Virus record (IMG/VR): IMGVR_UViG_3300050025_000577
Length of the DNA stretch: 64,000 bases
Strand: one strand, 5' to 3'
Source: a virus
Shown piece after piece: positions 1 through 32,121 of the stretch (positions are counted from its first letter, which is position 1; the number at the start of each line of letters is the position of its first letter). The notes below the pieces were generated by a model that was given only the letters and a program-made list of their open reading frames with translations, searched no databases and was not told where the DNA came from. Both the position numbers and the translations under genes were made by a program.

Positions 1-2
1 TA

Positions 3-951: not shown

Positions 952-1045
952 TAAATAAAGTTGTGGATTTTGCAAAAACCGCCCAACACCTCTTCACAAA
1001 AACACCCTGTATACAAGGATTACTCTTACCAAATTATTGAGTAGA

Positions 1046-2138: not shown

Positions 2139-2144
2139 TGCGTT

Positions 2145-2816: not shown

Positions 2817-2846
2817 ATCGACTCCAATGTTTTCTATAGAAAAGCG

Positions 2847-2979: not shown

Positions 2980-3002
2980 GTTTTATTGTTGCGCAAGACT
3001 CG

Positions 3003-3200: not shown

Positions 3201-3225
3201 GTTTTTTTCTCCTTATTTGTGGTGT

Positions 3226-3272
3226 GCCATTTAGCATAGTTATATCTTGTATAACATATGCTTTATTAGGCG
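3226..3272 (-). repeat. Short degenerate attC-like hairpin
   Basis: CGCCTAAT overlaps the HNH stop, then GCATATGTTATA-CAAGA-TATAAC(-)TATGC stem with one extrahelical base; core degenerate. Confidence 0.5.
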
Positions 3273-3769
3273 TTTTTGACTTTCTCTAAACTTCGCCTTT
3301 CTGCAACAATTTTTCTTAATTCATCCACTGGAATAGGCTCTTTACCATTGTGGTGTAAAACGCGATGACAATTTGCACAAACAATGCATACATCTTCAAT
3401 TGTAGTTACACGTTCTTCTTTTGCATTAGAAAGTGGTATTAAGTGATGAACTTCAATGTAACCTGCACCCAACTCGCCATAGACTTTCTCAAAATTTAAT
3501 CCACACACATAACAATTGTAGCCATATAGTTCAATCGCTTGAGCACGTAACCTGCTGTCTCGCTTTTGCATTTCTACAATTATTTCTTGAACACCACCTT
3601 CTCTAAACCCTTTTGGCTCCAATGCAGAGTCTATTACAATGCTTTTATCTGGGATTTGAACAAAAACAACTTGCGCCTTTTGTTCATTCGGTATAGATGT
3701 TACGCCGGATCTGGACAGATGAAATAAAGGCAAAACGCTATCAATGTTCTCCACAATCTCAATGTTCAT
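3266..3769 (-). CDS. McrA-like HNH endonuclease
   Basis: CYVC...IEVHHLIPLS...VCANCHRVLH. Confidence 0.85.
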   Translation of the reverse strand: MNIEIVENIDSVLPLFHLSRSGVTSIPNEQKAQVVFVQIPDKSIVIDSALEPKGFREGGVQEIIVEMQKRDSRLRAQAIELYGYNCYVCGLNFEKVYGELGAGYIEVHHLIPLSNAKEERVTTIEDVCIVCANCHRVLHHNGKEPIPVDELRKIVAERRSLEKVKNA

Positions 3770-4640: not shown

Positions 4641-4685
4641 AAATTTTCCTGACCAAATTTACTGGCATGCGGTTGAAAAAGAAAC

Positions 4686-4692
4686 GCCTAAC
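4686..4692 (-). repeat. Cassette core site GTTAGGC at the array/phage junction
   Basis: Complementary to the cassette's own inverse core CGCCTAA at 3272-3266; no upstream inverse core visible. Confidence 0.55.
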
Positions 4693-4889
4693 TGCTTATA
4701 GACCGCCAAAGATTAGAAAGAATTAATGTAGATTATAGCTCATTTGAGATGTGACCGCAGTGCGCGCGGGTCGAAGATACCGAGTGCTCTTCTCGGTGCG
4801 CACTCCATCTGGCGGCAGGGAGAATTAAAACCGCTATTTGCCTGCGAATTTACGTCTCCAGCCTCTATCTGAAGGTTGGAGACGTTTCA

Positions 4890-6116
4890 TTATTCGAGGA
4901 TCTCCACAAAGCGGGCGTGCCAGGCCATGTTGCCCTCTGTAAAGCCCTGAGAGCGAACCTTGACCTTCAGTCGGCCTTGAGCGGTGAAGCGGCGCTTGAT
5001 CTCTTGCTTATCGTCACGAGTGAAGCCGGTTCCTACGGCGCCCAGCGAGCTGCCATCCAGGCTTGAAATCACCATTGCGCCGAACGCATGACCTTGCGCG
5101 GTTGTAGGCGTCAATGAAGTCACCAAGGCGTCGAACTCGGTGAGATACTTCGTGCGAACATAGCCATCGTCCGTCTTCTTGCCGGCATACAAAGGCAAGT
5201 CGCGCCTGAACCACACTTCCCCTTCCCTACCCTTCTGATGCTGCTCGTCGCAGAGCGCCTGTTTCTCTTCCTTGCTTCGCGCTGTCGTTAGCGGCACAAA
5301 AGAACGGCCTTTCAGCACCAGCAGAGTGGCAATTTCGCGACCCTTGGCAACACGCGCACTTTGGTCCAGCATTTCGTGCCCAGAATGCCACAGACTCGAG
5401 AATATGAAATACGCCTGGTACGGTTCTTTCTCCGGCTCTCCATGTTCCGCATTGTACGTGGCGGCCTGCGATCCCGTGCGATGCTCGCCGCCGTTGCAGT
5501 CCAGATAGGTCAGCTCACCTTCCAGAATAAAGCTGCCGATCTCTTGCGCCAGCTCACGAAGAGCAATGTTCATCTCATCATTCGGAGCGCCGTTGAGCTT
5601 CATTTGGCGGGATTGATAGTAGACCCGGTCCTTGGATGCGAATACGATCAACTTGTTCCCGTCGATCTTGCGCTGGCCCCAGTAATTGGAGTTGTTGATG
5701 TACTTCTCGCGGGGAGAACTGGCATCCACCGGTTGCATGGGAGCGAACGCTCCCGGCTGCATGGTATTGGGGAATTCCATGATGAACTGCGGTTCAGCCG
5801 GCTTCGCCGGTGCGCTGCGCGCAGGCGCTGACGCAATGTTTCCGTTGTCGGAAATCTCGATCCCTTCAAGCTGAGCGGCCTTCTTGTAAAAGCCGGCTGC
5901 CATCTCAGGATGGCCCTGGTTGAGCGCCTGCTGGGCCAGCAGCAGACACTTCGGCGCAGCGATCCCCTTGCCGTAATCGCGCAGGTAGGCTTGCGCACCC
6001 CTCTCGCCTTGCTTCTCAAGGCCGCGGGCGACAATGCGCGTCTGCCAACGTGTAATGATGTCTGCCGGCACCCTTCTTTGTGGCGGCTTGCTGTTGATAT
6101 AGTCTTGCAGGTTCAT
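4890..6116 (-). CDS. ATP-dependent DNA ligase
   Basis: KIDG (motif I), LEGEL, EGEVWF, C-terminal OB fold with VGTGF. Confidence 0.9.
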   Translation of the reverse strand: MNLQDYINSKPPQRRVPADIITRWQTRIVARGLEKQGERGAQAYLRDYGKGIAAPKCLLLAQQALNQGHPEMAAGFYKKAAQLEGIEISDNGNIASAPARSAPAKPAEPQFIMEFPNTMQPGAFAPMQPVDASSPREKYINNSNYWGQRKIDGNKLIVFASKDRVYYQSRQMKLNGAPNDEMNIALRELAQEIGSFILEGELTYLDCNGGEHRTGSQAATYNAEHGEPEKEPYQAYFIFSSLWHSGHEMLDQSARVAKGREIATLLVLKGRSFVPLTTARSKEEKQALCDEQHQKGREGEVWFRRDLPLYAGKKTDDGYVRTKYLTEFDALVTSLTPTTAQGHAFGAMVISSLDGSSLGAVGTGFTRDDKQEIKRRFTAQGRLKVKVRSQGFTEGNMAWHARFVEILE

Positions 6117-6136
6117 AACGCCTCCATAGGTTTATA

Positions 6137-6174
6137 AAAGCTTGAGCCGCCAGGCATCCGGCGGCTCAAGCTTT
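6137..6174 (-). terminator. Perfect 15-bp hairpin upstream of the ligase gene
   Basis: AAAGCTTGAGCCGCC-8 nt-GGCGGCTCAAGCTTT; ends in a T run on the minus strand. Confidence 0.6.
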
Positions 6175-6472
6175 AGTCAGCACGATCCATCTCCCTTTTG
6201 ACCAGTTCAGGCGTCACCAGGGAGATGGCGATCCTGACCATCGTTTTGTATTTCTCGCTTCTGGTATTCTGGTGAATTCCATTCTCGAAACCGTTGCCTT
6301 TCAGCATGTTGTCCACCAAATCCCTAAAGGCTGAGCGAACGTTGTAGATTTCCCCGAAATCATAGTCAGGGTTATTGGGATCCATTTTCGGGAAAGCCTT
6401 GCGTAAGCTGGGCAGGACTTCGTTGTAGGCATCCTTGAAAATCAGGTTGGGAGAAAACCTCGACCGCCTCAT
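6173..6472 (-). CDS. Hypothetical phage protein
   Basis: Packed in the leftward operon with RBS. Confidence 0.6.
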   Translation of the reverse strand: MRRSRFSPNLIFKDAYNEVLPSLRKAFPKMDPNNPDYDFGEIYNVRSAFRDLVDNMLKGNGFENGIHQNTRSEKYKTMVRIAISLVTPELVKREMDRAD

Positions 6473-17600: not shown

Positions 17601-18203
17601 ATGACCGATACCCCCGCTGTACGACACATCAATCTCACCATCGCGGAACGAGCCGACCTGGCGAAGCAGCAAAAGATCGAGCAGGCGGTCGCCCTGTTCC
17701 TTGACTTGCAGCACGACCATACCTGGAAGGAGATCGCCGACGCTCTGGAGATGAGCCTGGCTTCGCTCAAGCGGCTGACGCAGACCACGGAGTTCAATTC
17801 GGTTTATCAGAACGCGCTTTCCACGGTGGGACATGATCCCCGCCTGGCCGCTATTACATCCAACCTGGGAGACCTGCTCCCCATGGCATACCGCAGACTG
17901 AGGACCATTTTGTCCAATCCGCAAAGCGATGACCGTGTCGCCATGCGCGCCATCGAGAAGCTGTTTGATTGGACCAGGCTCACGGAAAACGATGGGAACG
18001 ATGATCCGGCCACGCTGACCAGTTTCCTTCAGCGTAACGGCGTTAGAGTGGAAGGCAATCTCAACCTTATTCAGATCAATGTGCCGCAGGAATTCCGGGA
18101 AGCCTTCAGCAAGTTCCTCTCTCCAGGCACACCCATCCATGATGGCGAGGTGATCGAAGTCGCTCCGGCGACACCGGAAGAACCCACTGGGCAGGCCGAT
18201 TGA
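17601..18203 (+). CDS. HTH protein; terminase small subunit-like or regulator
   Basis: TWKEIADALEMSLASLKRL HTH, helical middle, NLNLIQINV C-terminus. Confidence 0.6.
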   Translation: MTDTPAVRHINLTIAERADLAKQQKIEQAVALFLDLQHDHTWKEIADALEMSLASLKRLTQTTEFNSVYQNALSTVGHDPRLAAITSNLGDLLPMAYRRLRTILSNPQSDDRVAMRAIEKLFDWTRLTENDGNDDPATLTSFLQRNGVRVEGNLNLIQINVPQEFREAFSKFLSPGTPIHDGEVIEVAPATPEEPTGQAD

Positions 18204-18624: not shown

Positions 18625-19227
18625 CTAATCCCACCAGAAGCGGAACGAAAACTTGCCGGCGTCGTCCGTGACGACTCCGTGTTCGTCGGCTTTATATAGC
18701 TTTGCGATTTGGTCTAGCTGCTTCGCCAGCACGCTACTCAGGTTGTTCCAATTGACGATGTAGTTCTTATATACATTCACATAGAGAACGCGGCTGAGTT
18801 CCATGCCGACTTCATAGACATGATGCTGCCGGCCATTGTTCAGGCAGCGCGGCCCAAAGTATGCCGGCGGAATGAGAGCATCGATGTCCCGAACGAGGGC
18901 TCGCTGCAAGGGCAGTGCGCTGCCTTCAGCGAATTCCAGCATTTCACTGGGAGATAACGCCGCTCGCCAGGTAATCTGACTGCCGCGCAGTCTTTCGAGG
19001 GAAAGCAGGGTTTGGACAAAACTCGTCGGGGCGTGTTGATCGTTGACGCCGACCAGTTTCCACACTTCCACGAAAGTCCGCCCGCATTTTCCGCATTGGA
19101 CATACGAATTGGGCAATTGATGCTCCTCATAGTGGATATTTTTATTTCCACAATATGGGCAGTGGTGCGGGTCGATCAGATAGGCAAGCAGTTGGTCCAG
19201 AGGAATGAGATCGTTGGTGACGTTCAT
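18625..19227 (-). CDS. Zinc-ribbon hypothetical protein
   Basis: CPYCG...CGKCG; GGAGG RBS. Confidence 0.65.
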   Translation of the reverse strand: MNVTNDLIPLDQLLAYLIDPHHCPYCGNKNIHYEEHQLPNSYVQCGKCGRTFVEVWKLVGVNDQHAPTSFVQTLLSLERLRGSQITWRAALSPSEMLEFAEGSALPLQRALVRDIDALIPPAYFGPRCLNNGRQHHVYEVGMELSRVLYVNVYKNYIVNWNNLSSVLAKQLDQIAKLYKADEHGVVTDDAGKFSFRFWWD

Positions 19228-19314
19228 GTTGCCTCCACTACGTGGTGAGCAGGAGCCTGCCGGTCTCGCCACTTTGCCAGGCGACGGACGCAAAGCGCGG
19301 TTACGATCCGCGGA

Positions 19315-20214
19315 TTATTTGGTGATCGTTTGAACCGGCTGAGCCACACCGTTGACGGTTACGATATAACCCACCGTGACGGAAGAAATGGATACACTGA
19401 CATCAGGTGCCGCTGGCGGTTGCGGTAGAGGTAGTGTCGGAGCCGGCACAGGTACTGGAGCCGAACGCGCCGCAAGCACAGCCATATATCCATCGCTTGC
19501 AGTGTTGAGATCATTCAAGAACCATCCTTGAGAACGCCCGTCGTCTGCATATTGCCAGAGATCGGATGCTCCTGCGCCAGGGAAGTTATAGACCGTTGGA
19601 ATGGTTGGATAGTTGTCCACGTACATGGACTTGAGATACCCGGCAGACCAGTGACGATAGTCATTCAGCCAGGCCGGCAGGTTGCCTTGAGCGTTGGCAA
19701 TAAATGATAGGAAGTGCACCGAGGAATAGATCATCGGCTTTAATCCGGTGACGCCTTCCACGACGTTGAGCCAGAACTTGACCTGATACGCAACCGGATC
19801 GCCGGTGGGATACAGGTTGTTGTATTTGGATTGGGACATCCCAAAGGGCTTGACCGGAGGCTCGTACTCAAGGTCCAGGATCGGCTCCATTTCAGGCAGC
19901 CATGTCCCTTTGATGATCGCTCCGGTTCCATCGCGGGTCAGATTGACCAGTTCGCCAATGCTCGCCATCTGTTCCAGATAATTCTGGACCTGCGGCGTGA
20001 CATCGTTCAACTCGAAGAAGTGATAGGCTCCGCGGAAGATGCCCAACTGTTTGGCAATCGCCAGGAGCGAGATCGAACGATCTTTATCGCACTTCCCCTG
20101 GCTGGCCTTTGCGACCACGAAGCCCGGCTTGGGATCCGCCTTCGTCAGATCGATCGGCATTTCCTCGGAATAAAAGTCGTACCCAATATTTTTCTTCAAC
20201 TGATAAGCTGGCAT
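19315..20214 (-). CDS. Endolysin, GH25 muramidase
   Basis: VAKASQG, GAYHFF, ILDLE, PMIYSS, LWQY; Pro-rich C-terminal linker. Confidence 0.88.
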   Translation of the reverse strand: MPAYQLKKNIGYDFYSEEMPIDLTKADPKPGFVVAKASQGKCDKDRSISLLAIAKQLGIFRGAYHFFELNDVTPQVQNYLEQMASIGELVNLTRDGTGAIIKGTWLPEMEPILDLEYEPPVKPFGMSQSKYNNLYPTGDPVAYQVKFWLNVVEGVTGLKPMIYSSVHFLSFIANAQGNLPAWLNDYRHWSAGYLKSMYVDNYPTIPTVYNFPGAGASDLWQYADDGRSQGWFLNDLNTASDGYMAVLAARSAPVPVPAPTLPLPQPPAAPDVSVSISSVTVGYIVTVNGVAQPVQTITK

Positions 20215-20368
20215 GGTTCTCCTGATAAAGATGGAACTCAGATAGATCCAGTGGAAATTTCACCTACCATCCTGACTATTCGACGCGGTAAGTCTACTTG
20301 GCACGGGTCCAAGCTGGAGCCGTTCTTCGCGGCCCGTTTAGCAGGGCAGGCGTCTAAGCCGCCCTGTC

Positions 20369-20587
20369 TCAATCTGGTCTGTTTTTCAAGAACTCATTAC
20401 AGAGATTTTGTCCTAGCTTTATTGTTTCCTCCCTGGACATCCCGAACACACCGTATCGGCGCAGAATATTGTTTAGAAGATAGTGCGCACCGCTTGCACC
20501 AGCGCCGTCCAATCTTTCTTTAGCTTCATCCACTGCGTTTTGAAGTTCGATGTATTGATCGTAGGTTTGAATTTTAGATTGCGCCAT
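20369..20587 (-). CDS. Hypothetical phage protein
   Basis: ATG at 20587 (MAQSKIQ). Confidence 0.5.
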   Translation of the reverse strand: MAQSKIQTYDQYIELQNAVDEAKERLDGAGASGAHYLLNNILRRYGVFGMSREETIKLGQNLCNEFLKNRPD

Positions 20588-20803
20588 AATAAGCTCCTCT
20601 GCATTTTCCAAAATCCACTTTCCAGCCCAAAGCACGTTCCGACGAATAACTCTGATCGTCGATCGGCAATGGGCGTATGTATTCGCATAGCTTCGAGCTC
20701 TTCTGCATAGAGACGGCGAAGCAATCGGATCTTGATGAGTGCGTGAGTGTGTCTCATGGCGTCTCCATTGTACTGCATGATAGGCTGTGCTTCAACCAGT
20801 GGC

Positions 20804-21043
20804 TCAATGAAGTCTGCCTGGCAGCCTTGCCAGCCTTCGCATGGCCTTCGCCATTTTCTCCGCCTTCATCGCGATCACTCTCAAGGCATGCAGGTTGGTG
20901 GAGATCTTGTCGGAGGCCAGTCCTTCCGCGATGGCTTTCCTTTCCGTTTCCGTGAACAGCATCTTTTCCATCTCGCCATCCCCAATGGTCAACGTGATGA
21001 CCGTGGCAAGATGTTCTTCATCGCGCGCTTTGGTCAGATCCAT
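20804..21043 (-). CDS. Hypothetical phage protein
   Basis: RBS GAAAGG; first clear gene downstream of the structured region. Confidence 0.55.
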   Translation of the reverse strand: MDLTKARDEEHLATVITLTIGDGEMEKMLFTETERKAIAEGLASDKISTNLHALRVIAMKAEKMAKAMRRLARLPGRLH

Positions 21044-21044
21044 A

Positions 21045-21547
21045 ATGCCTTTCCGTTGTCAGAAACTTTGATGGGAGCCATTTGCGGCTCCCATCGCGAG
21101 CAGAGCGTCGCACAAGGGGTAGGGTCTCGAATGAGAGGCGACTTTTCACGTACTCTGCTTGATTTGCGTATTCGGCACTGAAGGCGTCCCTCCAGTGCCC
21201 GGCGATATATCGCCGTCCACGTCCACACGCATGCGTCATCTTATGTCACTCGGTCACAATTAGTACAGGAATGCGTGCGCGTTGCTACAGGTCGTGCCAC
21301 GTACTTATCAACTTAAGTTTGATACCTAATCCGGACGGAGTCCTCCAGGTGGTCGCCCACCTGGAGTTCCGTGTGGCGCACCCACTGCGCCTGACCCACT
21401 GCAACCCGACATCACAGCGGATCGAGCAGCCCGCAGGCTGCATCAGAAAGGAGAAGAAATGTCTGCCCTCGGCAGAGACATGGATTGAAATTGCTTTCAA
21501 TCCATGTCTCTACTATTGGTCGTCGGTTGTTAAGGTTCAAGTGTTAC
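21045..21547 (-). ncRNA. Candidate large structured non-coding RNA or leader
   Basis: Promoter at 21554-21582; at least 8 hairpins, incl. 17 bp/GCAA (21474-511) and 10 bp/GCGA (21343-66); no convincing ORF. Confidence 0.5.
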
Positions 21548-21553
21548 ATTACA

Positions 21554-21582
21554 AATGTAACTTAACTATTCCAGTTTGTCAA
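21554..21582 (-). promoter_or_regulatory. Sigma70-type promoter with operator
   Basis: TTGACA, 17 bp, TACATT; CTGGAATAGT at 21574-65. Confidence 0.7.
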
Positions 21583-21593
21583 GGTGACGCCAG

Positions 21594-22016
21594 TCATCTG
21601 GTCTTCCGGACAATGATCGCTTCCGGTAATTCCGTTTCGATCATGCGCAACACTTCGTTCCAGTCGCCGCCCGCCAATCCCGAGCTCATGCCAAAGGGAA
21701 GATACACAGGTTTCTTGCCGGCATAGCGGCTGACTTCCTGAAGGCATGCTCTCAAGGCTTCGTAATCGGTGTACTGCCTATCCCGGCCAAAGCCATCCTG
21801 AGCGTACAAGTCAGCGATGGTTAGGTTCTCATCGACCTGGTGATATCCGACTTGCCCAAGTTTGGGCGAACGCCTTTGAAACTCTGCGTACCACTGCGGC
21901 CATCTGCGCCTGATCTGGAGCGCCACACCTGCCCCGGCCACTTTGCGGCAATTGACTTGGTGGCAGATAACGCCGCGCTCGACGCCAATGAGATCTGAAT
22001 TGATGATATGGGTCAT
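21594..22016 (-). CDS. Macrodomain ADP-ribosylhydrolase (Poa1p/DarG-like)
   Basis: ICHQVNC..GAGVALQI..WP; TDYEAL; YLPFGMSSGLAGGDW. Confidence 0.85.
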   Translation of the reverse strand: MTHIINSDLIGVERGVICHQVNCRKVAGAGVALQIRRRWPQWYAEFQRRSPKLGQVGYHQVDENLTIADLYAQDGFGRDRQYTDYEALRACLQEVSRYAGKKPVYLPFGMSSGLAGGDWNEVLRMIETELPEAIIVRKTR

Positions 22017-22018
22017 AT

Positions 22019-22186
22019 TTACCAGACGGAAAGATAGAAGTGCGCACAGCCGAGGAGACTGATCCCGATCAGGATGAACTCGTCACTTCTCACTGTGCCA
22101 AGCATGAACGAAAATGCTGTGAATATCCCCTCCATCAACTTGAACCCCAACTCCAAACGGATGTGAAAGAGCGTCACGTCAAGCAT
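22019..22186 (-). CDS. Small hydrophobic protein
   Basis: GGAG RBS, 55 aa, between 22179..22490 and the macrodomain gene. Confidence 0.45.
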   Translation of the reverse strand: MLDVTLFHIRLELGFKLMEGIFTAFSFMLGTVRSDEFILIGISLLGCAHFYLSVW

Positions 22187-22490
22187 ATGGTCTCCGGTAG
22201 TACCAGTGTGTGCCGGCTTTCGTTCTGCGATGCTGTTCCCATACATTGGTATCCAGCGGTGGACGCAGCAGCGATTGCGCCGGCATGACTCGAATGTGAT
22301 CCCATAACGCGGCTTCAAATTCCGCCGAGATCATGAAGCGCGGTTGCTTTTGAATCACGCTGTTCCGCAATTGAAACCTGCCCACCTGGTCCAGGATCTT
22401 GCCCTTCACGATTTCTCCGACTACCGGAAACTTTTCCAAGGGCTGGATGATGACGGCGTCGAAGGTGTTTCCGATGTCAGGAAGTGTCAT
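22179..22490 (-). CDS. Hypothetical phage protein
   Basis: First gene after the promoter at 22530-22558. Confidence 0.55.
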   Translation of the reverse strand: MTLPDIGNTFDAVIIQPLEKFPVVGEIVKGKILDQVGRFQLRNSVIQKQPRFMISAEFEAALWDHIRVMPAQSLLRPPLDTNVWEQHRRTKAGTHWYYRRPYA

Positions 22491-22529
22491 TGAGACTTAT
22501 CCTTTGTGATTATGGTGTTATAATTTCCA

Positions 22530-22558
22530 AATGTAACGCAACTATTCCAGCCTGTCAA
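22530..22558 (-). promoter_or_regulatory. Sigma70-type promoter with operator
   Basis: TTGACA, 17 bp, TACATT; CTGGAATAGT at 22550-41. Confidence 0.7.
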
Positions 22559-23452
22559 TAGAGTTGGGGGTTCAAATATTGTCCAACAGCGCGCCGTCGG
22601 CAAACACGGTGGGCGGTCGAAAATTGGCCGAATAGCGCCGAATGGCACCTGCACGATGCGCAAAATATAAAGTATCGTGTAATTGACGTATGGCCCATTT
22701 TTTGTATAGCATGGGGAGTAAAATAGATGGCATGGAGAAAAGAATATTCCAATCCTATTTGGTGATTGTGGTGGGAAGTTTATTAATAGGGATTCTCGCA
22801 ACCATCATAGCAACTCTTGGGGGATACATGAATATTGTTCATTGCCCTCCTCAATTCGCAATTTGTTCTATCGTTAATATGATATTGATAGCATTTGTTT
22901 TCACAATTCCTTTAATTGGTTTTGGTAGCGTCGCAATTAGACTGTGGTCAAAAAATCTCATTTCTAAAATCAGGGTGGAGGAAATTCTTGATGGTGATAT
23001 TAGACATAATTCAGGATGTATCAGTTTAAGGATAACAAACAAGTCTGACAATGATTATTTAGAAAATCTGATCATTCAACCGATAAGAATTACTGCTATT
23101 GGGCCAGTATATCTAAAAGATTTGCCAACAGAGGAGCGCCCATTTTTGAGCGAGATAACAAGAATTCCTCCAAACAAGGATATAGATATTTTGTTAGCAA
23201 GCTATGCTGGCATGGACGGTTTTATAGGACATATTACAAAATTCTATATTGCAACAGGACTTTACAGCAGAGAGTTTTTTCCTTATGACGAAACTTCTAC
23301 AAAAGGCATTGGCGACTTCGATATATGGAAAGCCGATTACGAATTGATTATTGGTGTTTCTGGGACAATTTCTGGCAACGATATATCTAAATATGGTAAC
23401 TATATACTTGACGCATGGGCTAATTTTTTTGTGTAGAAATGGGCTGTCATTT

Positions 23453-24208
23453 TTATCCTTCATATATTATATGATAAGGAAATCGTTGCATAAAAACTCT
23501 ACCTAAAAAATCTCTCGCGGATATTGTTATTTCAAAGTCATATTCTCCACGCTGAAAAGAAATTTCTTCTAAATTTGGAAAAAGTTCATCGTTTCGAAAT
23601 CTTTTTGGCATTCCTGAATCTCTATATAAACAAAATATTTCTTTGTCTGGATCAATTTCAAATAGATGTAATCTCCCAAAGGTATTTTTCTTAATTTTTA
23701 TCGAATCATAATCAAACCATGACGACTGCTTCCCGGTTGCTCCAATCATTGCATCAGAAATCATTTTGTTAATCAAGTCAGATTTTGTTTTAATTTCATG
23801 ATCTTCTCTTTTCGACTTCAGATATTTAACTGAATAACTGCAAACAGCATATAAAAATGATTTTTGAGGGCAACTAATTTTCATATAAATAATATTTCCA
23901 TCTCGATAAATATATGGGGAAAAATCCACCTCTTTTTTTCTTTGAAATGAATATTTAAATTTTGAAAATTGTTTAGCAATCTTCGACATTAACTTCCAGA
24001 TTATATAAGCCAAAACACCGGCAACAAGTAATATTATTATAAATACGATTACTTGAACAACTCGACAAAGAACTATGCTACTCCCACAGTAGCCAGAAGG
24101 AGATAAAAGCATATCGTTTACCAACTCCCCCAATAACACAAGACAAAAAGCAATAATGCCCTGCCAAAAAAGAGTCCATGTAAACTTAAGTTTTCCCATA
24201 GACCCCAT
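23453..24208 (-). CDS. Membrane protein, passenger gene
   Basis: Two N-terminal TM segments, beta-rich C-terminus. Confidence 0.7.
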   Translation of the reverse strand: MGSMGKLKFTWTLFWQGIIAFCLVLLGELVNDMLLSPSGYCGSSIVLCRVVQVIVFIIILLVAGVLAYIIWKLMSKIAKQFSKFKYSFQRKKEVDFSPYIYRDGNIIYMKISCPQKSFLYAVCSYSVKYLKSKREDHEIKTKSDLINKMISDAMIGATGKQSSWFDYDSIKIKKNTFGRLHLFEIDPDKEIFCLYRDSGMPKRFRNDELFPNLEEISFQRGEYDFEITISARDFLGRVFMQRFPYHIIYEG

Positions 24209-24301
24209 TTTACCTTGTTATTTAATTGTTGAATCATATTTCCTTTTCCTTTTATGGTTTTTAAACTATAATGATTAGAATAATTCAAGAGGAGAATCAA
24301 A

Positions 24302-24811
24302 ATGAAGACTTTCCTTGTTAAACTCTTCGGGATAATAGTTATCATTCTTATGTCGGGGTGTTCACCAATACAGCCAACCCCATCTCAAATAGAATTTTTA
24401 CAAACCGCCCAGCAACAAATTAATGAACTGGCAACTGCCAATCCCGATTCCGGATTGCACGAATGGATGCAAAAAGAGGGTGTAACCTTAACCGCCAAAG
24501 AAGTTCAGTATAATATGCCAAACAATCTTTACAAAAAATTTGCATTGACTGGTACAGGCGAATTATGCAATTACTACAATTGGGGATATGACGCTAGTAT
24601 AGAACCAAAATATTTCTGTGTAACAATAACACCTAGCGGAGGATATTTGGAAAGGTGGTATATTTATTTCACAAGAGAGGATTTTTCCGAACTCTATCAA
24701 GGCTTATTAAACAAGAACTGTTACATAAAAGTAATCGCAATAATAGAAAGATATGAAAATAATCAAGACAACATGGCAACCGCAAATACTGCGGAATGGA
24801 CTTGCTATTAA
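24302..24811 (+). CDS. Lipoprotein, passenger gene
   Basis: Lipobox-like LMSGC after a hydrophobic signal. Confidence 0.75.
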   Translation: MKTFLVKLFGIIVIILMSGCSPIQPTPSQIEFLQTAQQQINELATANPDSGLHEWMQKEGVTLTAKEVQYNMPNNLYKKFALTGTGELCNYYNWGYDASIEPKYFCVTITPSGGYLERWYIYFTREDFSELYQGLLNKNCYIKVIAIIERYENNQDNMATANTAEWTCY

Positions 24812-24984
24812 ATCGTTATTAACTTTCTTGTTAAAATAAAATCGGAAAGATGAGAGGAATGGACTTAATGGGATAGACTGAGCATCTGTTGAGGGTGAAA
24901 AACCTTCAATGGTTCAAATCGGGCTTTCATCGGCATACTTGTAAGATAAGTCTTATTCTATTATTAGATGATACTCGCTTAATA

Positions 24985-25122
24985 TTATCTTGCTAGTGCA
25001 TTTACTATACAAACAAACAATAATAAGAGCGAAATCATAACAACAATCAATACCATACAATTATCGTTTTTGACGCTGGCTTTTGCCACATTTCTCGCAA
25101 CTCCTCTACCAATTCTTTTCAT
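24985..25122 (-). CDS. Small membrane peptide
   Basis: 45 aa, MKRIGRG...LLLFVCIVNALAR. Confidence 0.4.
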   Translation of the reverse strand: MKRIGRGVARNVAKASVKNDNCMVLIVVMISLLLLFVCIVNALAR

Positions 25123-25126
25123 AGAT

Positions 25127-25294
25127 TTATTCCTTGTTTTTATCCTTGATCTCTCCGCTTGGAATAGGGGGCGATTTCAATAACTCTTTCAAAACATCTT
25201 TTTCATCCATGCCATAAAGAGAAATCTTTTTATTGTATTTGCTACTTCTTTTCTTGACAACCTTCTTTTTTACTTTCTTCTTTGTTTCTGCCAT
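25127..25294 (-). CDS. Small basic protein of the kind I associate with IS1595 transposase 3' regions
   Basis: 55 aa, KISLYGMDEKDVLKELLKSPP. Confidence 0.55.
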   Translation of the reverse strand: MAETKKKVKKKVVKKRSSKYNKKISLYGMDEKDVLKELLKSPPIPSGEIKDKNKE

Positions 25295-25324
25295 AATTTT
25301 ATCCTAGTGCTAGAATATGAGTGT

Positions 25325-25396
25325 GCCGCAGTAGCTCAAGGGAGGAGCGGAAACCTACTAAGTTTATGGATGTGAGTTCAAATCTCATCTGCGGCA
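25325..25396 (+). tRNA. tRNA-like gene, anticodon ACT, class-I body, no CCA
   Basis: Cloverleaf: GCCGCAG/CTGCGGC, GCTC/GAGC, AAAC/GTTT with loop CTACTAA, 5-nt variable loop, GTGAG-TTCAAAT-CTCAT. Confidence 0.7.
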
Positions 25397-25423
25397 CACT
25401 TCTTTTAATGCTACTTTCCGATG

Positions 25424-25564
25424 CTATCCGGCAATCAATTCCTTATATTGCAATCTTTTACCATTCGATTTCTTGATTGCTTCTATCATTCTTATTCCGT
25501 CTTTCTCGCCACGAGTATTATAACGATAATCAAATTCTGCAAGATAGCGGTCAAGATGTTGAGA
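25424..25564 (-). pseudogene. IS1595 transposase C-terminal fragment
   Basis: SQHLDRYLAEFDYRYNTR...GKRLQYKELI. Confidence 0.85.
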
Positions 25565-25657
25565 AGTAAGAAGGCTATTCATAAATCCCCCAACAATTAT
25601 TGGCATAGCAACATTGGCAACTAGAAAACCCGTGAGTTTTAATTTCATCTCCCAATT

Positions 25658-26452
25658 TTAACTTATCAATTTTCCGTTTTTCCATCTGCGAAAACTTGTA
25701 GCGTTTGGTGTGGCATCTCGTGCTTTTTTGAAAGAAACTCCAGAAGTTTTACCTTGCAACAATAAATAGTTGAAATAAGTTTGACAGAATTGAGATGCTA
25801 TTGATCCATGTATACTTTGAAAAGGAGCTATCAATGACTCGCAAACAGGAAGTTGAGAAAACATCTTGCCAAAGTTAGCGATCCCAGTTTCACAGCACAA
25901 AGATATAAATTGTTTTGGAAACACTCCATCCAAATTCAAAATATCATTGATCTCTTTAGATAATTTCCATGTATCTCCAAATTTTATCGAATTAGATTTT
26001 CCGTGACCAACAAGTATGACATGAGTTATAGCATTATGATTATTTTGCGTCTTCCAAAATCGGCTTAGTTCATCTAAACTTCTAACATCCCAATATAAGA
26101 CTTCTCCCTCTGAGAGCAATAAACTAAAATAATGGCGTAAAGATTCCCTTAGAGGATTAAGAAGACTATCTTCACTCTCAAAATCACCGATTTTCAAAAC
26201 CAATATCCCCAGCCGTTTTACTAATGCAGATGTTGGTATAAAACTAGAAACATCTTCAAGAAGCTTGATCTTAGCAGAACGATTTCTGATTTCAACAATC
26301 TCAGACCTATATAATGCTGATGGAGCATTTATATCAAGTCTCGCCCTCGATCTTGATACATAAACAATATCTCCAACCCGAAATTTATTTGTCATGTGCA
26401 ATATTGTATCAATAAATTCATTGATTAAATTACACAAATTATTTTTAGCCAT
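25658..26452 (-). CDS. CHAT/caspase-like protease with SH3/KOW-like N-terminus, passenger gene
   Basis: HVILVGHG ... FISLCCETG His-Cys dyad pattern; FRVGDIVYV N-terminus. Confidence 0.65.
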   Translation of the reverse strand: MAKNNLCNLINEFIDTILHMTNKFRVGDIVYVSRSRARLDINAPSALYRSEIVEIRNRSAKIKLLEDVSSFIPTSALVKRLGILVLKIGDFESEDSLLNPLRESLRHYFSLLLSEGEVLYWDVRSLDELSRFWKTQNNHNAITHVILVGHGKSNSIKFGDTWKLSKEINDILNLDGVFPKQFISLCCETGIANFGKMFSQLPVCESLIAPFQSIHGSIASQFCQTYFNYLLLQGKTSGVSFKKARDATPNATSFRRWKNGKLIS

Positions 26453-26856
26453 AATGACGTTTTCAAGGCACAGATTTTTACATGTCATTTTACCCCCCCG
26501 CTATGCGAAGAAATTGCTTTCATGCGTCAGGTATATAGTTACCCTAAATATTATTGTGGTGAGTTTGTACATCTTTTATTCAAAGCAAACAAAGATATTA
26601 TAAAATCTAAGCACCCCATTGCAGGATTAAGAGTTGAAGACTTTGAATCAACTCTTGAATGGAAAAAACTGGAGAATTACACTATGAAAGAAGAAAATAA
26701 AAGACGCAAGAAGATCAAACATCCCGCGGTCTACAAACCAGAAGATTTGATATAGTAAGAATTTATAGTTACCAAAAATAGTGCCGTCAGGCATGTGGCG
26801 TTCCTTGAGGCACACAAAAAAAAGGAGTAAGTGCTTGCGCACCTACTCCTTTTGTA

Positions 26857-28530
26857 TTACAGGACTGCCAGGAATTCTTTGGCTTGCGGAATGTTCGCCA
26901 GAACCGCCTTGAGCCTGGTCTTGGTCTCTTCGGTCAAGGCCAACTCGTTGTTCTTTGCCTTGCGTGTGGCGACCCACCAGTCAATGCGGCGTTCCTTCTC
27001 GACCAGCACCAAACCCATCTTATCCCCACGAATGGCTTTGATGTGTTCCTGCGGACGAGGAACGCACAACGGAGCCTTCTGCCAGAATGCGCGCATGGCT
27101 TGCTTGCGATCATTCGTGCGCAGATATTCCTTGTTGTAAGCATCCGCTGCTTCCGAAGACATTGCGAAGCGCCAGGCTGCCCATGCGCTCTCATCGGCTT
27201 CCTGGAATGTCGCGCCGTTCGCCAGCGCCTGCAAATACGCCATATTCCACGAGCGCGTCTGCATTGGGTTGACGTGATACTCCGGCATTTTCTCCGCCAG
27301 CATCCGAAGCGTTACTTGATCGTAACGCTCAATGTCGCTTTCCGTTGTCGGAAACACGCCGTTCGGACTGGAGTCGTTGATCAGCTCGACCAGGTCATCC
27401 TGCCAGGCTTCGATGTACTGGATCAGCCCTGGGCGGAAATCAGATGCGATCAAACCGTACCCATCCTGCGCGATCACATCTTCACCGGTTTCTTCCAATG
27501 ATCCTGTGGTCGCGACCAGGAGCGCCACGGCTGCCGCCGTTGTGATGTCCACCGCTTCCAGGCGCTCGATTTCATTCAGCAAATCCGTGTATTCATCGCT
27601 GGCAGTCAGCGCAATACGGAATTCCTTGTACCAGTTCTGCTGGTTGATTTTCAGGATCTTCATGCGCTCGAAGATTTCACTGCGACGCTTGTTGAAGGCT
27701 GCCACTAGTTTCATGGCTTGATAGTACGCTGGCCGATCAATGACCAGTTCGCGCTCTTGCAAGGTTGCGGGAACGAAGCCGCGGTCTTCTCCCGGCTCTT
27801 CTTCATCTTCGCCGCCAATGAACTGCCGGTTGGCCGCCAGGAAAGCCTTGACGGTATTGTCATCCCAGCCGAGATGTTCACGGCATTGTTCAGCCTGCCG
27901 CTCCAGTTCCGTGCCTGGAGTGGAAATGATCGGGGCGACGCCGTCAAATCCATCTCCATCATCCTTTCCAGGCATGAAGATGATTTGCAGGAGCTTCAAC
28001 TCGCCTTCGTCACGGCTATTGATCGGATGGCGCTCTGGTAGACTGGCAATCAATTGCTCGAAGGTCAATTCGGTCTCGCCAGTGTATGCGTCTATGTAAT
28101 CGGCGGTTTCGAGATCGCCGTCCCCCAATGTCTGTTCCAGATACAGCTCTCTGAGCGTCTCGGTTGCCAGGAGCGAGCTGGACACTTTCAATCCGGCTGC
28201 TGCGCGCAAAGCCGCCGAATATTTGCGATACAGATCCGCCGGCTTGGTCGCTTTGGTATTCCCCTTCTTGCGCTCTGCTGCCGCCTGATCCATCTCCAGG
28301 CTGGCCGCATTGACCAGAGCGAGGACTGCCTTGCCGAGCAACTGACGGGCCGTGGAAGCCCATACCGTCTTTGTGACACCGGCATCAGTCAACGTCTTGG
28401 TAATCACACTGAAATACACCAACGGATCGTTTCCACACTTGAGGAAATTGTTGGCTTGAAGAATGGCGATTGGAGTTTCGCCAATGTGGACATCATCCAC
28501 CAAACTGCCTGTGACTTGCATCGGGTACAT
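26857..28530 (-). CDS. Large hypothetical phage protein (557 aa)
   Basis: Long ORF with RBS; no motif recognised. Confidence 0.75.
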   Translation of the reverse strand: MYPMQVTGSLVDDVHIGETPIAILQANNFLKCGNDPLVYFSVITKTLTDAGVTKTVWASTARQLLGKAVLALVNAASLEMDQAAAERKKGNTKATKPADLYRKYSAALRAAAGLKVSSSLLATETLRELYLEQTLGDGDLETADYIDAYTGETELTFEQLIASLPERHPINSRDEGELKLLQIIFMPGKDDGDGFDGVAPIISTPGTELERQAEQCREHLGWDDNTVKAFLAANRQFIGGEDEEEPGEDRGFVPATLQERELVIDRPAYYQAMKLVAAFNKRRSEIFERMKILKINQQNWYKEFRIALTASDEYTDLLNEIERLEAVDITTAAAVALLVATTGSLEETGEDVIAQDGYGLIASDFRPGLIQYIEAWQDDLVELINDSSPNGVFPTTESDIERYDQVTLRMLAEKMPEYHVNPMQTRSWNMAYLQALANGATFQEADESAWAAWRFAMSSEAADAYNKEYLRTNDRKQAMRAFWQKAPLCVPRPQEHIKAIRGDKMGLVLVEKERRIDWWVATRKAKNNELALTEETKTRLKAVLANIPQAKEFLAVL

Positions 28531-28599: not shown

Positions 28600-29073
28600 T
28601 TAGATTACGGTTTCAGCGACCGGCTGCTCTTCCAGCGGGATGTCAGCCTGAGCATCGCCGACATCATTGGTTCCGTCGTCCTTGCCGTTTTCCAGCAAGC
28701 GCAGGGACGTGGTGTGGCTGGTCTTGATGCTCTCGTAAGCATCGCCGTTTTCCGGCTGATAGCGTTCGGCCAACAGGTCAGCCAGGCTGAAGGTGACTTC
28801 GACCACTGCGCCCTTGCGGATGTTCATGGTGCGCACTTTGTCGGCTTGCGGACCCCACACCGCGAACTCGATGATGTTGCCTTTGCGCTCCCAGACCTTC
28901 TGTCCATTATCGTCGATCACTTCCTGGCCGTTCTGTTTCTTGGTCCACGAGCGATCGAAAGCGACACGCACGTTGACAACATTGGTGCCTTCCTTTTTGG
29001 TCGAGCGCGGCGCACGGGTTACGTGACCTTTGGCCGACACCATCGCGTCTTCGTTGGAAAGTTTGATTTGCAT
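28600..29073 (-). CDS. ssb: Single-stranded DNA-binding protein
   Basis: OB fold: GHVTRAP..VVNVRVA..EFAVWGPQAD..KGAVVEV; acidic tail. Confidence 0.8.
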   Translation of the reverse strand: MQIKLSNEDAMVSAKGHVTRAPRSTKKEGTNVVNVRVAFDRSWTKKQNGQEVIDDNGQKVWERKGNIIEFAVWGPQADKVRTMNIRKGAVVEVTFSLADLLAERYQPENGDAYESIKTSHTTSLRLLENGKDDGTNDVGDAQADIPLEEQPVAETVI

Positions 29074-29099
29074 TGTATACTCCTGTTGAGAATGATTTT

Positions 29100-29142
29100 G
29101 AGCTTGCGCTCAATGAACCAAACGCCGTAAGGCATCTGGTTC
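29100..29142 (-). repeat. 43-nt two-hairpin leader motif, copy 1
   Basis: GAACCAGATGCC-TTAC-GGCGTTTGGTTC-ATT-GAGC-GCAA-GCTC. Confidence 0.8.
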
Positions 29143-29175
29143 TTTTGGTTTATTCAGTTAGCTTACAAGTGGCTT

Positions 29176-29204
29176 ATTATTATTCCAACCCCCTGTTTTG
29201 TCAA
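29176..29204 (-). promoter_or_regulatory. Sigma70-type promoter upstream of ssb
   Basis: TTGACA, 17 bp, AATAAT; TTGGAATAA overlaps the spacer/-10. Confidence 0.6.
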
Positions 29205-29230
29205 TCGGCACATATACGGCACGAACGAGC

Positions 29231-29659
29231 CTAATGGCCTAGTCGTGCCAGTAGCACTTCACGTGGTTCCTGAACGATCCTGACATTGTTCAGGCCAGCC
29301 AGAAGATTTCTTGCATTCAGGATCGGCTCGCGCAGATGAGGCGCTTTGATCTTGTAATTCTGCGTAAGCCACCCCACGACATCTTCGCAATCTGTATGCA
29401 GCACGACCTGCTCTTTATTGCCGCGCGCCTGCAATTCAGCAATGTACAAGAGAGCATAAAAGGCGCTCATGATCTCGGCCATCGGGCTGGTCTGATGCTC
29501 AAAGTCTTTCAAGTCAGGATGGAATACCGCCATTTCCCGATCCTGAAAGTGGAAGGAATGCGGCTTATCGTTCACATCCACAGCGACTGAGCCATACATT
29601 TCCGCATCGGGACGGCCATTATTTTTGCACCCGCCGTCGGAAAATACATCGATTTTCAT
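29231..29659 (-). CDS. RNase HI-like protein
   Basis: VFSDGG..NG, AEIMSA, LHTDCEDV, terminal LGH. Confidence 0.8.
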   Translation of the reverse strand: MKIDVFSDGGCKNNGRPDAEMYGSVAVDVNDKPHSFHFQDREMAVFHPDLKDFEHQTSPMAEIMSAFYALLYIAELQARGNKEQVVLHTDCEDVVGWLTQNYKIKAPHLREPILNARNLLAGLNNVRIVQEPREVLLARLGH

Positions 29660-29774: not shown

Positions 29775-30128
29775 TTAGAACGGGCAATTGCCATCGAGCA
29801 TGCCCTCGACATACGAAATCCCACTTTTCCGATGCAGCCACTCAAACGCTGCCCGAATGTCGGCTTCGGTGTAGAGCGTCATCGACAAAGTATCCAACGT
29901 CGGAACGTTGCATCGCTCCCCCTTTTCCATCATGACGATGGACAAGTAACCTTGAGGGGTAAACGCCAGGTGCAGGACGCGCTTGCGACGATACTTCCTG
30001 CAAGCATTCAACGCTTCCAGCATGATCGCGGTTGTATCGGCGCTGTACTGCCCACGCTCAGAAGCAAAGATGCACGCTTCGGTGTGCGGGGAAACAGGAT
30101 CAACATCAGTAAACGATTTCAGTTTCAT
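29775..30128 (-). CDS. Hypothetical phage protein
   Basis: GGAGG RBS, ATG at 30128. Confidence 0.6.
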   Translation of the reverse strand: MKLKSFTDVDPVSPHTEACIFASERGQYSADTTAIMLEALNACRKYRRKRVLHLAFTPQGYLSIVMMEKGERCNVPTLDTLSMTLYTEADIRAAFEWLHRKSGISYVEGMLDGNCPF

Positions 30129-30153
30129 ACGAAACCTCCATAGGTTGAAATGC

Positions 30154-30196
30154 GAGCCGCAGCTCAACGAAACAAACGCCGTGAGGCATCTGTTTC
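30154..30196 (-). repeat. 43-nt two-hairpin leader motif, copy 2
   Basis: GAAACAGATGCC-TCAC-GGCGTTTGTTTC-GTT-GAGC-TGCG-GCTC; compensatory C-G to A-T change relative to copy 1. Confidence 0.8.
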
Positions 30197-30204
30197 GTCG
30201 CAAT

Positions 30205-30516
30205 TCACAATGGACATCCGGCTGCAAACCAGTCAACGATCACATCCCCATGACAGGCTTCCGGCTTGCAGAAGCAAACCAACCGCTTATCTTTAAGTTC
30301 ACGCACACGCCGCAGATACTCAGCATCTTCGTGAATGCGTTTCCAGAACATGCGCTTGAATGCTGCAATACAGCCAGCACGATCGTGATGTACTTTGCAT
30401 ATCGAGCACCACCCAATAGGATGCGGGTTACCAAAGTACCCGTCTTCCCCATGCCCTTTGCGCCCGATATACACATCGCCAGATTTGCGATCTCGGATGT
30501 TGATGACTTTGCACAT
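30205..30516 (-). CDS. DUF4326-like protein
   Basis: DVYIGR..GYFGNPH..LVCFCKPEACHGDV. Confidence 0.8.
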   Translation of the reverse strand: MCKVINIRDRKSGDVYIGRKGHGEDGYFGNPHPIGWCSICKVHHDRAGCIAAFKRMFWKRIHEDAEYLRRVRELKDKRLVCFCKPEACHGDVIVDWFAAGCPL

Positions 30517-31334: not shown

Positions 31335-31841
31335 TTACCTGGCTCCATGTATTTGATGCAGCCGATATCCGAAGTCAAGATCTTCCCGCTGTTCTTTCAA
31401 AGACATGAATTCTTCCGGAACGGGAACGAGTTGGCCGAGGAACCCTTTCCGGAAGAGGATCCGAAATCCATACCCAAATTCAACAACGCTTTGCACGGTG
31501 TCTGCCGTGAACCCGTGCTCGTGCATGGCTCGGACGATATCGTATAGGTTGAAATGCGCGCATTGGAGAGCAGCTTCCAGCGGAATGTGCATGACGAGTT
31601 TTCCGTCCTCTGCGATGACCGCCAGGAGCTTTTCGATAGCCTCGCCTGGAAGGGGGTAGGGATAGTTGAGCGTGACTTTGATCTTGTCATAATGTTCGCC
31701 CGGAAAATCCCAGGGCGCCTGGAGAGAGATGCGGGGAGCTTCGGCGACCATCGCGCCTGCGTCATCTTCCGTGCTCCGTGAATATTCCATCGCCCCGTGA
31801 TTGTCCATTTCAAACGTGCGTACCCTCAAAACGTTAAGCAT
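31335..31841 (-). CDS. Hypothetical phage protein, first leftward gene
   Basis: Adjacent to the divergent control region. Confidence 0.6.
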   Translation of the reverse strand: MLNVLRVRTFEMDNHGAMEYSRSTEDDAGAMVAEAPRISLQAPWDFPGEHYDKIKVTLNYPYPLPGEAIEKLLAVIAEDGKLVMHIPLEAALQCAHFNLYDIVRAMHEHGFTADTVQSVVEFGYGFRILFRKGFLGQLVPVPEEFMSLKEQREDLDFGYRLHQIHGAR

Positions 31842-31980
31842 AAGCCTCCGAAAGTTTCCGACAACAGAAACAATCTAACAGAACATTTGTTCTATTGACT
31901 GGAAGAGATGAGTTCCAGTTGGGGATTATAAACACATTTGATATTTTTGGAAAGATTGATTTCCAAATGGTGCGCAACCC

Positions 31981-32009
31981 TTGACAGACTGGAACAGTGC
32001 CGCTACAAT
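31981..32009 (+). promoter_or_regulatory. Sigma70-type promoter of the late operon, in an AT-rich divergent control region (31842-32121)
   Basis: TTGACA, 17 bp, TACAAT; CTGGAACAGT in the spacer; ACTGGAA-N8-TTCCAGT at 31898-919. Confidence 0.75.
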
Positions 32010-32121
32010 CCGAATGCAAACGAAGCGGCGAGGAATTAAATTACATAGATACTCGATAAAACAACTTTATTAAGTATTCACGTAATTTAATCGTCCGCCC
32101 AAAATTGAAAAGGAGTTTTTT

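Follow-up and report, generated by a model that had tools for sequence, protein, structure and literature searches.

Leaders built around a terminator and an antiterminator, among them the lambdoid late leader (pR' - 6S RNA - tR'), place a hairpin and a U-rich tract within ~100 nucleotides (nt) of a strong promoter, and where RAT or other antiterminator hairpins are used, a hairpin upstream shares sequence with the 5' arm of the terminator. A stretch with this layout lies on the minus strand of a viral contig (IMG/VR record IMGVR_UViG_3300050025_000577), at positions 21547-21044 of the 64,000 nt that were analyzed, hereafter the window. It stands ahead of a gene for a 79-amino-acid (aa) protein and a GH25 muramidase gene, and in the lambdoid case as here the downstream cassette includes a muramidase. 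We read the stretch as a cis-acting, structured, untranslated leader or attenuator of a phage accessory-gene transcript, with about even confidence, and the terminator/antiterminator leaders and the lambdoid late leader appear to be its closest working likeness. The likeness has limits: the hairpin in the antiterminator position, rather than being the weaker, is by far the more stable of the two, one of the three lineages lacks the module, and ~400 nt of further conserved structure follows. No Q-like or BglG-like gene was recognized, and no Pfam or PHROG antiterminator match appeared among the 10 neighbors scanned. The three lineages are that of the window and two divergent syntenic homologues, L043 and L101, both from peat metagenomes and reached via the flanking proteins.

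Two other groups of elements invite comparison. The PeSL cassettes of T4-type phages (PMC2839356, PMC4122927) also join a repeated early-type promoter to a stem-loop in a plastic accessory region, and here, too, a promoter motif is repeated between genes and linked to indels and reshuffling at the repeats (the promoter copies P1 and P2, the loss of the macro-like gene in L101, and a variant joint in a contig from RNA run X17). The correspondence is partial, with only two copies per phage, of which only one has a stem-loop, in an unrelated temperate phage. PeSLs are also short (tens of nt) and lack a conserved structured domain of 155 nt (PMC2839356, PMC4122927). The ornate RNAs of Rfam (GOLLD, ROOL, HEARO, OLE, and raiA) likewise extend over several hundred nt, contain many hairpins, and occur in phages or prophages, but they differ from the modular, lineage-variable architecture, unconserved tetraloops, and tiny distribution found here. 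The original prediction, made from the letters of the window alone, had proposed either one large ornate RNA of the GOLLD/ROOL kind or a switchable leader. The former did not survive comparison: half of the listed stems are lineage specific, only the 155-nt domain is shared, and the suggested Infernal search against Rfam 15 (including GOLLD, ROOL, HEARO, OLE, tmRNA, RNase P, introns, and riboswitches) gave no match for the leader at the gathering score or at E values up to 5. The only match anywhere in the window was a tRNA at 25325, with nothing in the leader beyond subthreshold miRNA-like hairpins (<=26 bits versus a gathering score of 76); the same scan found nothing in L043 and only a tRNA-like element in L101. 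GNRA loops, which had been offered as a sign of tertiary folding, are not conserved, being GCAA in the first hairpin (H1) of the window where L043 has AUCG, and GCGA in an insertion confined to the window lineage. No pseudoknots or tertiary motifs were found in the leader.

That the stretch is noncoding follows from how it has diverged. It fills a gap of 550 nt between a macro-domain-like gene (21594-22016) and the 79-aa open reading frame (ORF; 20804-21043), and because both flanking genes run on the minus strand, the candidate RNA is assigned to that strand. Two candidate ORFs, 21018..21239 and 21285..21500, were searched for the excess of third-position substitutions and the frame-preserving indels of a protein gene, and neither ORF had them. 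Against L043, substitutions per codon position are flat (29/24/26 and 25/23/26), where the flanking genes retain a coding pattern (24/15/36 and 43/22/70). Within the gap, indels measure 12, 56, 2, 4, 3, 2, 2, and 1 nt and break the frame, and even L050, a copy of the window leader at 97% identity, has a 2-nt deletion within 21285..21500. The absence of a credible gene, claimed from one sequence, is thus borne out, and the homologues were found to conserve base pairs and not a reading frame.

Folding strength and preserved pairing speak for an RNA. The leader has a minimum free energy of -217 kcal/mol, compared with -167 +/- 6 for dinucleotide shuffles (z scores of -8.4 sense and -5.4 antisense), and the L043 leader gives -5.7 sense and -4.7 antisense. 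When 638 overlapping 200-nt minus-strand windows were scanned across the 64 kilobases (kb), three of the seven most structured fell in 21001-21600. Base pairs predicted from the window alone were then scored in L043 through a structure-blind MAFFT alignment. Standard pairs occupied 108 of 145 predicted positions, compared with 63 to 67 of 145 when the 3' partner was slid by 1 to 3 columns, and both-sided compensatory pairs numbered 21, compared with 7 to 11 in the slid controls. Compensatory pairs above controls in divergent homologues, the generic mark of a conserved structured RNA, are therefore present; RNAalifold counted 22 of them over five sequences, and hairpins H1, H3, H6, H7, and H9 are all retained in L043. 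H1, H3, H7, H9, and the helix Hc contain G-U pairs, which would be A-C mismatches on the opposite strand; together with the stronger sense z scores, they argue for selection on the sense RNA. Kept by such compensatory changes, a structured RNA or switchable leader is the part of the original prediction that fits best. The region is conserved, unclassified, and modular, a candidate structured RNA rather than a new RNA class.

The only part common to all three lineages is a 155-nt 3' domain (21199-21044), in which hairpin H7, an A-rich linker, Hc, and hairpin H9 precede the ribosome site, and the minimum-energy fold of each lineage on its own yields the same H7-linker-Hc-H9 order. H7 (21174..21199, minus strand) is an 11-bp hairpin with arms GGCACUGGAGG/CCUUCAGUGCC in the window, GGUGCUGGGAG/CUCUCAGCACC in L043 (four both-sided changes), and GGCAGCCGGA/UCCGACUGCC in L101; it was first noticed as GGCACTG.../...CAGTGCC. 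The segment after it (21099..21173, minus strand) begins with the linker (21173-21160) and continues with Hc, in which AGCAGAGU (21159-21152) pairs with GCUCUGCU (21106-21099) around a variable 31 to 46 nt and an invariant GCGAC block (21111-21107). Hc includes a U-G pair in the window where L043 has U-A. H9 (21070..21095, minus strand), a GC-rich hairpin of 10 bp whose stem had also been predicted, ends the series 26 nt before the start codon, with arms GAUGGGAGCC/GGCUCCCAUC in the window, GACGGGGCUGC/GUAGCCCCGUC in L043, and GACCCCGCCUGCC/GCCAGGCGGGGUC in L101. Both H7 and H9 remain paired in L101, where the sequences of the stems are almost wholly different.

Recovery by structure gives a similar result. 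A covariance model, R1, trained only on L043 and on the window lineage (window and L050), recovered the L101 domain at full length and at the syntenic place (21.3 bits, rough E value of 0.003), in a primary sequence that nhmmer barely detects. Nothing else was found by R1 in 279 kb, the rest of the window included. In all three lineages, the domain ends ~25 nt before the next start codon, and that start codon belongs to the 79-aa gene in the window and L043 and to an Acb2/Tad1-like gene in L101. No terminator follows H9, and in L101 there is no U-run at all at that place. The lack of a hairpin plus U-run after H9 in L101, with the domain adjoining different ORFs, favors a leader over a separate RNA gene. 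The domain would act in cis on the stability, processing, or translation of the downstream message. As it alone is common to the three lineages, probing would be best aimed at this domain rather than at the full 500 nt.

At the other end of the leader is a sigma-70-type promoter, P1 (21554..21582, minus strand), with TTGACA at 21582-21577, a 17-nt spacer containing CTGGAATAG, and TACATT at 21559-21554. This TTGACA-17-TACATT promoter, which the original prediction had firing into ~500 nt (~505 by our count), is present on the minus strand and kept in both L043, as TTGACA-17-TACAGT, and L101; the consensus over lineages is TTGACA-17-TACA(T/G)T with a conserved spacer of CTGGAA(T/A)AG. Transcription is predicted to start at ~21547-21544, and a dyad, GTTACA-N7-TGTAAC, covers the -10 element and the start. 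About 35 nt past the predicted start begins H1 (21474..21511, minus strand), the predicted perfect hairpin of 17 bp with a GCAA loop, which has an invariant base (GUAGAGA / UCUCUGC) and an upper stem that covaries, with four both-sided changes in L043 (GC>AU, UA>CG, UA>AU, and AU>CG). In L050 and L048, H1 has a 2x2 internal mismatch.

Overlapping H1 is a second element (21445..21476, minus strand) reported by the terminator scan, consisting of a short GC hairpin, TCTGCC-GAG-GGCAGA (21476-21462), and a pyrimidine tract, TTTCTTCTCCTTTCT (21459-21445). The overlap of TCTGCC/GGCAGA with the 17-bp hairpin had been pointed out before and is real: the 5' arm of the GC hairpin, the UCUCUGC segment, shares 3 to 7 nt with the 3' arm of H1. 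In the layout of an intrinsic terminator, a GC-rich hairpin is followed directly by a U-rich tract, and this order is found in the window (21476-21462 with CATTTCTTCT) and in L043 (tract UUUCUUUUCUU), the tract being broken up by C. The L043 counterpart has a 7-bp stem and a 5-nt loop, TCTGCTG-GTGAG-CAGCAGA, followed by TTTCTTTTCTTCTCC, and the 12-mer TTTCTTCTCCTT after the GC hairpin is identical in all three lineages. The energy cost of forcing the terminator-like hairpin over H1 is 6.7 kcal/mol for the window, 4.8 for L050, and about 0 for L043, where a shift in register allows H1 and the small hairpin to form together, with alternatives within 0.4 kcal/mol. L101 has the promoter and the pyrimidine tract, with H1 and the GC hairpin absent.

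These elements suggest a leader of three modules: a promoter-proximal gate, a variable middle in which hairpins come and go, and the conserved 3' domain. A transcript would start at P1 and continue into the 79-aa gene and the GH25 muramidase cluster. Along the way, the base of H1 (AGAGA/UCUCU) would compete with GCAGA for the UCUCUGC segment of the GC hairpin; with H1 fully closed, the terminator-like hairpin would be blocked, and with the base of H1 open, it could form. The gate may in this manner set how many polymerases, both from P1 and from upstream genes, read on. Termination, antitermination, and a role in cis are what we infer. If the leader does control read-through or translation, it would show how phages time or insulate swappable cassettes, as it lies at a recombination-prone junction of accessory genes. 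Soil phage genomes hold long noncoding stretches that annotation skips, and this leader is a conserved, unclassified, structured example.

Several observations weigh against a leader of this kind. Transcription from P1 is predicted from the promoter motif, and the contigs from RNA libraries prove no transcript, ends, or strand: in four runs (Logan contigs), cover of 19000-23500 was thin, patchy, and even, with no excess over the leader, and the contigs carry neither strand nor ends. One such contig stops at 21460 beside the terminator-like hairpin and another passes through, and nothing was drawn from either. The covariation comes from three lineages, too few for formal statistics such as R-scape. 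Hc and GCGAC, identical in the three lineages, offer no covariation; like the single-stranded blocks, they are invariant and could equally be DNA sites. The predicted switch also varies, H1 winning by 5 to 7 kcal/mol in the window and both hairpins coexisting in L043, and the H1/terminator module is missing from L101 and so is not essential to the conserved part.

Best placed among the alternatives, though unlikely, is that the locus encodes one or more independent, stable RNAs acting in trans, either an RNA of ~100 nt running from P1 to the terminator-like hairpin or a processed 155-nt domain, perhaps a decoy or regulator in a counter-defense neighborhood. P1, H1, and a hairpin with a U/C tract have the layout of a small-RNA gene, and the terminator forms freely in L043, but the small-RNA module is absent in L101. 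For the 155-nt domain, the tRNA-like element of L101 provides an argument. It lies at 3761-3832 of that contig, between P1 with its pyrimidine tract and the conserved domain, in place of the middle of the window leader (Rfam tRNA, 34.8 bits versus a gathering score of 29; E value of 1.3e-5), and RNase P processing there would release the domain; its anticodon arm is irregular, and ARAGORN called no tRNA at this element. The 3' domain also keeps its place though the next ORF differs between lineages, and the neighbors resemble accessory or counter-defense genes (the macro-domain gene, the Acb2/Tad1-like gene of L101, and a weak, below-threshold Lar-like match). An RNA gene of its own, one of the two options in the original prediction, is opposed by the missing terminator after H9 and by RNA-library contigs that show no enrichment over the flanks, one of which bridges the domain and the ORF (weak evidence). 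Loops are not conserved either, leaving no obvious seed for pairing in trans and no tertiary contacts.

Somewhat less probable still is that the stretch is recombination debris without a collective function, a pile-up of promoter cassettes, terminators, insulating hairpins, and RNase sites. The locus is mosaic. A 56-nt two-hairpin insertion occurs only in the window lineage, alongside a 12-nt indel; the H1/terminator module is replaced in L101, where the macro gene has shrunk to a 36-aa remnant; and the intergenic region has diverged slightly faster (~40%, window versus L043) than the flanking genes (32 to 33%). P1 is itself duplicated: P2, a second copy of its 31-nt motif, lies at 22558-22528, 976 nt upstream and before a 103-aa gene (0 expected by chance), and L101 has both copies (3182-3208 and 3684-3710). 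The tail of the 79-aa gene is found elsewhere behind a foreign N terminus, and in a variant contig the macro gene is linked at its end to P2. Debris, however, would not hold H7, H9, H1, and H3 paired through many both-sided changes, would not retain invariant blocks of 12 to 20 nt, and would escape a structure model in a lineage that sequence search barely detects.

Details of these joints are worth recording. In the window, the 31-nt motif (TTGACA-NN-CTGGAANAG-..-GTTACANTTG; 22528-22558 and 21552-21582) brackets the block from the 103-aa gene to the macro gene. The X17 contig links 21592, the end of the macro gene, to 22558 at P2 through 12 other letters, which suggests that recombination at the promoter repeat produced a variant phage whose genes are ordered differently. 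A further mosaic joint appears in L103, a 536-nt ENA contig with a 142-aa ORF whose first 117 residues are unrelated to the 79-aa protein and whose last 25 residues, with the DNA downstream, match the tail of the 79-aa gene at 99% identity.

A bolder extension of the leader reading, which we regard as rather improbable, is that the 3' domain is a new ligand- or protein-responsive sensor RNA gating an accessory or counter-defense cassette (the 79-aa gene in the window and the Acb2/Tad1-like sponge in L101), with the promoter-proximal hairpin pair as a second, lineage-specific gate. The L101 neighborhood itself looks like a swappable counter-defense or accessory cassette. Upstream of its promoter are genes for SSB, a 566-aa protein, and a 100-aa protein and the macro-gene remnant; a leader of 340 nt follows the promoter, and then come a 74-aa Acb2/Tad1-like gene, an 85-aa homologue of the 79-aa protein, and GH25. 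The 74-aa protein, encoded at 4060-4284 ahead of the 79-aa homologue, has a Pfam match to Acb2_Tad1_hairpin, a family of anti-CBASS/anti-Thoeris sponges.

We consider it improbable to a greater degree that the stretch is a replication origin which P1 transcription activates or primes, like the primary origin of T7 or RNA II of ColE1, a possibility the original prediction also named. A strong promoter does fire into 500 nt of noncoding DNA in an early arm with SSB, primase, and an RNase H-like ORF (recognized by eye only), and there are invariant inverted repeats, AGCAGAG/CTCTGCT. G-U pairs and stronger sense-strand z scores point instead to selection on RNA, and there is no AT-rich unwinding region (GC content of 0.54), no iteron, and no turn in the cumulative GC skew here. 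Pyrimidine-rich RNA makes a poor persistent hybrid, and the RNA over the conserved tract is pyrimidine rich. Small proteins, whether from the minus-strand ORFs of 73 or 71 aa or from a plus-strand mini-ORF behind AAGGAGAAGAAATG, are scarcely credible: ORFs of 73 and 82 aa share an open frame between the window and L043, and the pyrimidine tract, read as its complement, gives a perfect Shine-Dalgarno sequence in each of the three lineages with an ATG following in two, but codon periodicity and protein family matches are lacking, indels break the frame, and the antisense AAGGAG-ATG mini-ORF was rejected as not conserved between lineages, its 9- and 12-aa peptides being unrelated and L043 having no start codon at the right spacing.

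Returning to the structured leader, its middle varies between lineages. H3 (21393..21423, minus strand) is a 13-bp hairpin rich in G-U pairs with a GUCGG loop, kept in L043 with an AUCGG loop and the changes AU>CG, CG>UA, and GC>UG; five of its pairs are G-U and would be A-C mismatches if read on the other strand. Next to it lies the insertion (21332..21391, minus strand), with two perfect hairpins, GGCGCA/TGCGCC (21391-21375) and ACGGA..CTCCAGGTGG-GCGA-CCACCTGGAG..TCCGT (21372-21335). Both are present as predicted, including the 10-bp stem with a GCGA loop at 21366-21343, but the latter is not conserved beyond the window lineage: the insertion corresponds to the 56-nt gap in L043, is present in L050 and L048, and occurs as a single copy in the window. 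An invariant block, ACGACCTGTAGCA (21283..21295, minus strand), is paired by RNAalifold with 21434-21424, as the 3' strand of a long-range helix closing off the middle; this helix is kept in L043 by four one-sided changes only and is not recognizable in L101. Last before the 3' domain is H6 (21200..21215, minus strand), CGGCGA-UAUA-UCGCCG, another of the predicted stems, which in L043 reads CGGUGA-GUAC-UCGCCG with a one-sided CG>UG change. Three further features of the original prediction, the stems GCAGCC/GGCTGC (21441-21426) and TATCAA/TTGATA and the two copies of CACGTACT, exist in the window where they were reported and are not kept in L043. A long-range pairing between the pyrimidine tract and the ribosome site proposed by RNAalifold was set aside, as it has 8 bp in the window, 6 bp in L043, and no counterpart in L101.

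The final 16 nt of the leader appear to belong to a different system. In the operator/stoperator networks of cluster A mycobacteriophages (PMC9283540, PMC6550527), many sites are spread over a prophage, and here TTTCTGACAACGGAAA (21050..21065, minus strand), which overlaps GGAAAGG, the ribosome site of the 79-aa gene, is a copy of a dispersed 16-bp palindrome. The dyad, TTTCCG-N4-CGGAAA, has 31 matches with up to two mismatches, or ~25 sites in the window, compared with 0.29 expected, and 8 and 11 matches in L101 and L099, where its enrichment is just as strong. Sites range from 5839 to 63841 (e.g., 5839, 6552, 21050, 27339, 31855, and 36315), have unrelated flanks, and lie in many cases just before gene starts and in others within genes; none occur in the low-GC cassette region at 1-5800 or in the 22.5- to 26.8-kb insert. 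As RNA, the TTTCTGACAACGGAAA site would have a C-A mismatch in L043 and L101, and with the prophage-wide dispersal this led us to reject an RNA hairpin for a DNA palindrome. The dyad is probably a DNA operator for one phage regulator in an operator/stoperator-like network, which would place an operator on the ribosome site of the downstream gene. Stoperators are asymmetric and orientation dependent (PMC9283540, PMC6550527), whereas this site is a dyad and no binding protein was identified; the likeness is limited to these 16 nt. HTH proteins encoded by the prophage, such as the 200-aa product of 17601-18203, would be candidate binders of the site (TTTCCGACAACGGAAA). Other minus-strand windows of 200 nt with z scores of -4.5 to -7.3 are 6101-6300, 58701-58900, 26701-26900, 31801-32100, 51401-51600, 29001-29300, and 30101-30300, several of which adjoin copies of the dyad.

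The distribution is confined to the three lineages of rare temperate peat phages. L043 is a 93-kb JGI contig, a provirus according to IMG/VR and identical in L044, L045, L051, L053, and L099, with the gene order macro-like gene, 489-nt gap, 75-aa gene (62% identity), and GH25. L101 is a 17.7-kb ENA contig to which an exhaustive search with a profile of the 79-aa protein led (P0027; E value of 7e-11). Besides L050, the window leader has near-identical copies in L048/L049 (96%, error prone), a 4,365-nt JGI contig with two inverted copies of the leader and of the start of the 79-aa gene and with 1-nt indels in scattered places; the contig probably reflects chimeric or poor assembly and not a real inverted duplication, and it was treated as low-quality sequence. 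A blastn search of the region against 50,697 phage records (INPHARED) gave no match. The macro protein has relatives at 42 loci in IMG/VR and others in the protein collection, none of them syntenic and none with similar DNA or a covariance-model match. Searches with the 79-aa protein, as a single sequence or an alignment, returned only L043 in viral contigs, nothing new in JGI metagenomes, and nothing in GTDB genomes; those with the neighboring 557-aa protein returned only the same contig among viral contigs and nothing in GTDB genomes, and the GH25 protein found only a 98% identical copy. DNA block patterns matched in viral contigs (L054-L076, L078-L089, and L102) were discarded as chance matches inside coding DNA.

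The window itself comes from a peat/permafrost metagenome, with prophage-like content from ~4.9 kb to at least 58 kb. The phage also occurs in peat and wetland metatranscriptomes (runs X15-X20), and variant copies occur in DNA runs X9-X14 (52 to 94% of words shared). Its left arm is transcribed on the minus strand and includes, as judged by eye, the RNase H-like ORF and genes for SSB and the 557-aa protein, and also those for the macro-like protein, the 79-aa protein, and the GH25 muramidase; farther along come a ubiquitin-like operon, a primase gene, and an ORF the size of an integrase. On the plus strand, the right arm has long ORFs of up to 1,863 aa that we take to be structural genes. Downstream of the leader, the 79-aa gene (20804..21043, minus strand) has no Pfam or PHROG match, and its homologues are P0001-P0004 and P0027; the codon periodicity of 24/15/36 given above is its own. 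Upstream, the macro-domain-like protein of 140 aa (21594..22016, minus strand) matches phrog_335 (E value of 1.8e-30) and is named after the JGI annotation of P0005, to which it is 97% identical. Between the 557-aa gene and P2, at ~22560-26850, lies ~4.3 kb of low-GC DNA (0.32 to 0.38) containing the tRNA at 25325; the L043 counterpart measures only ~600 nt, and the block is compatible with an insertion derived from an insertion sequence.

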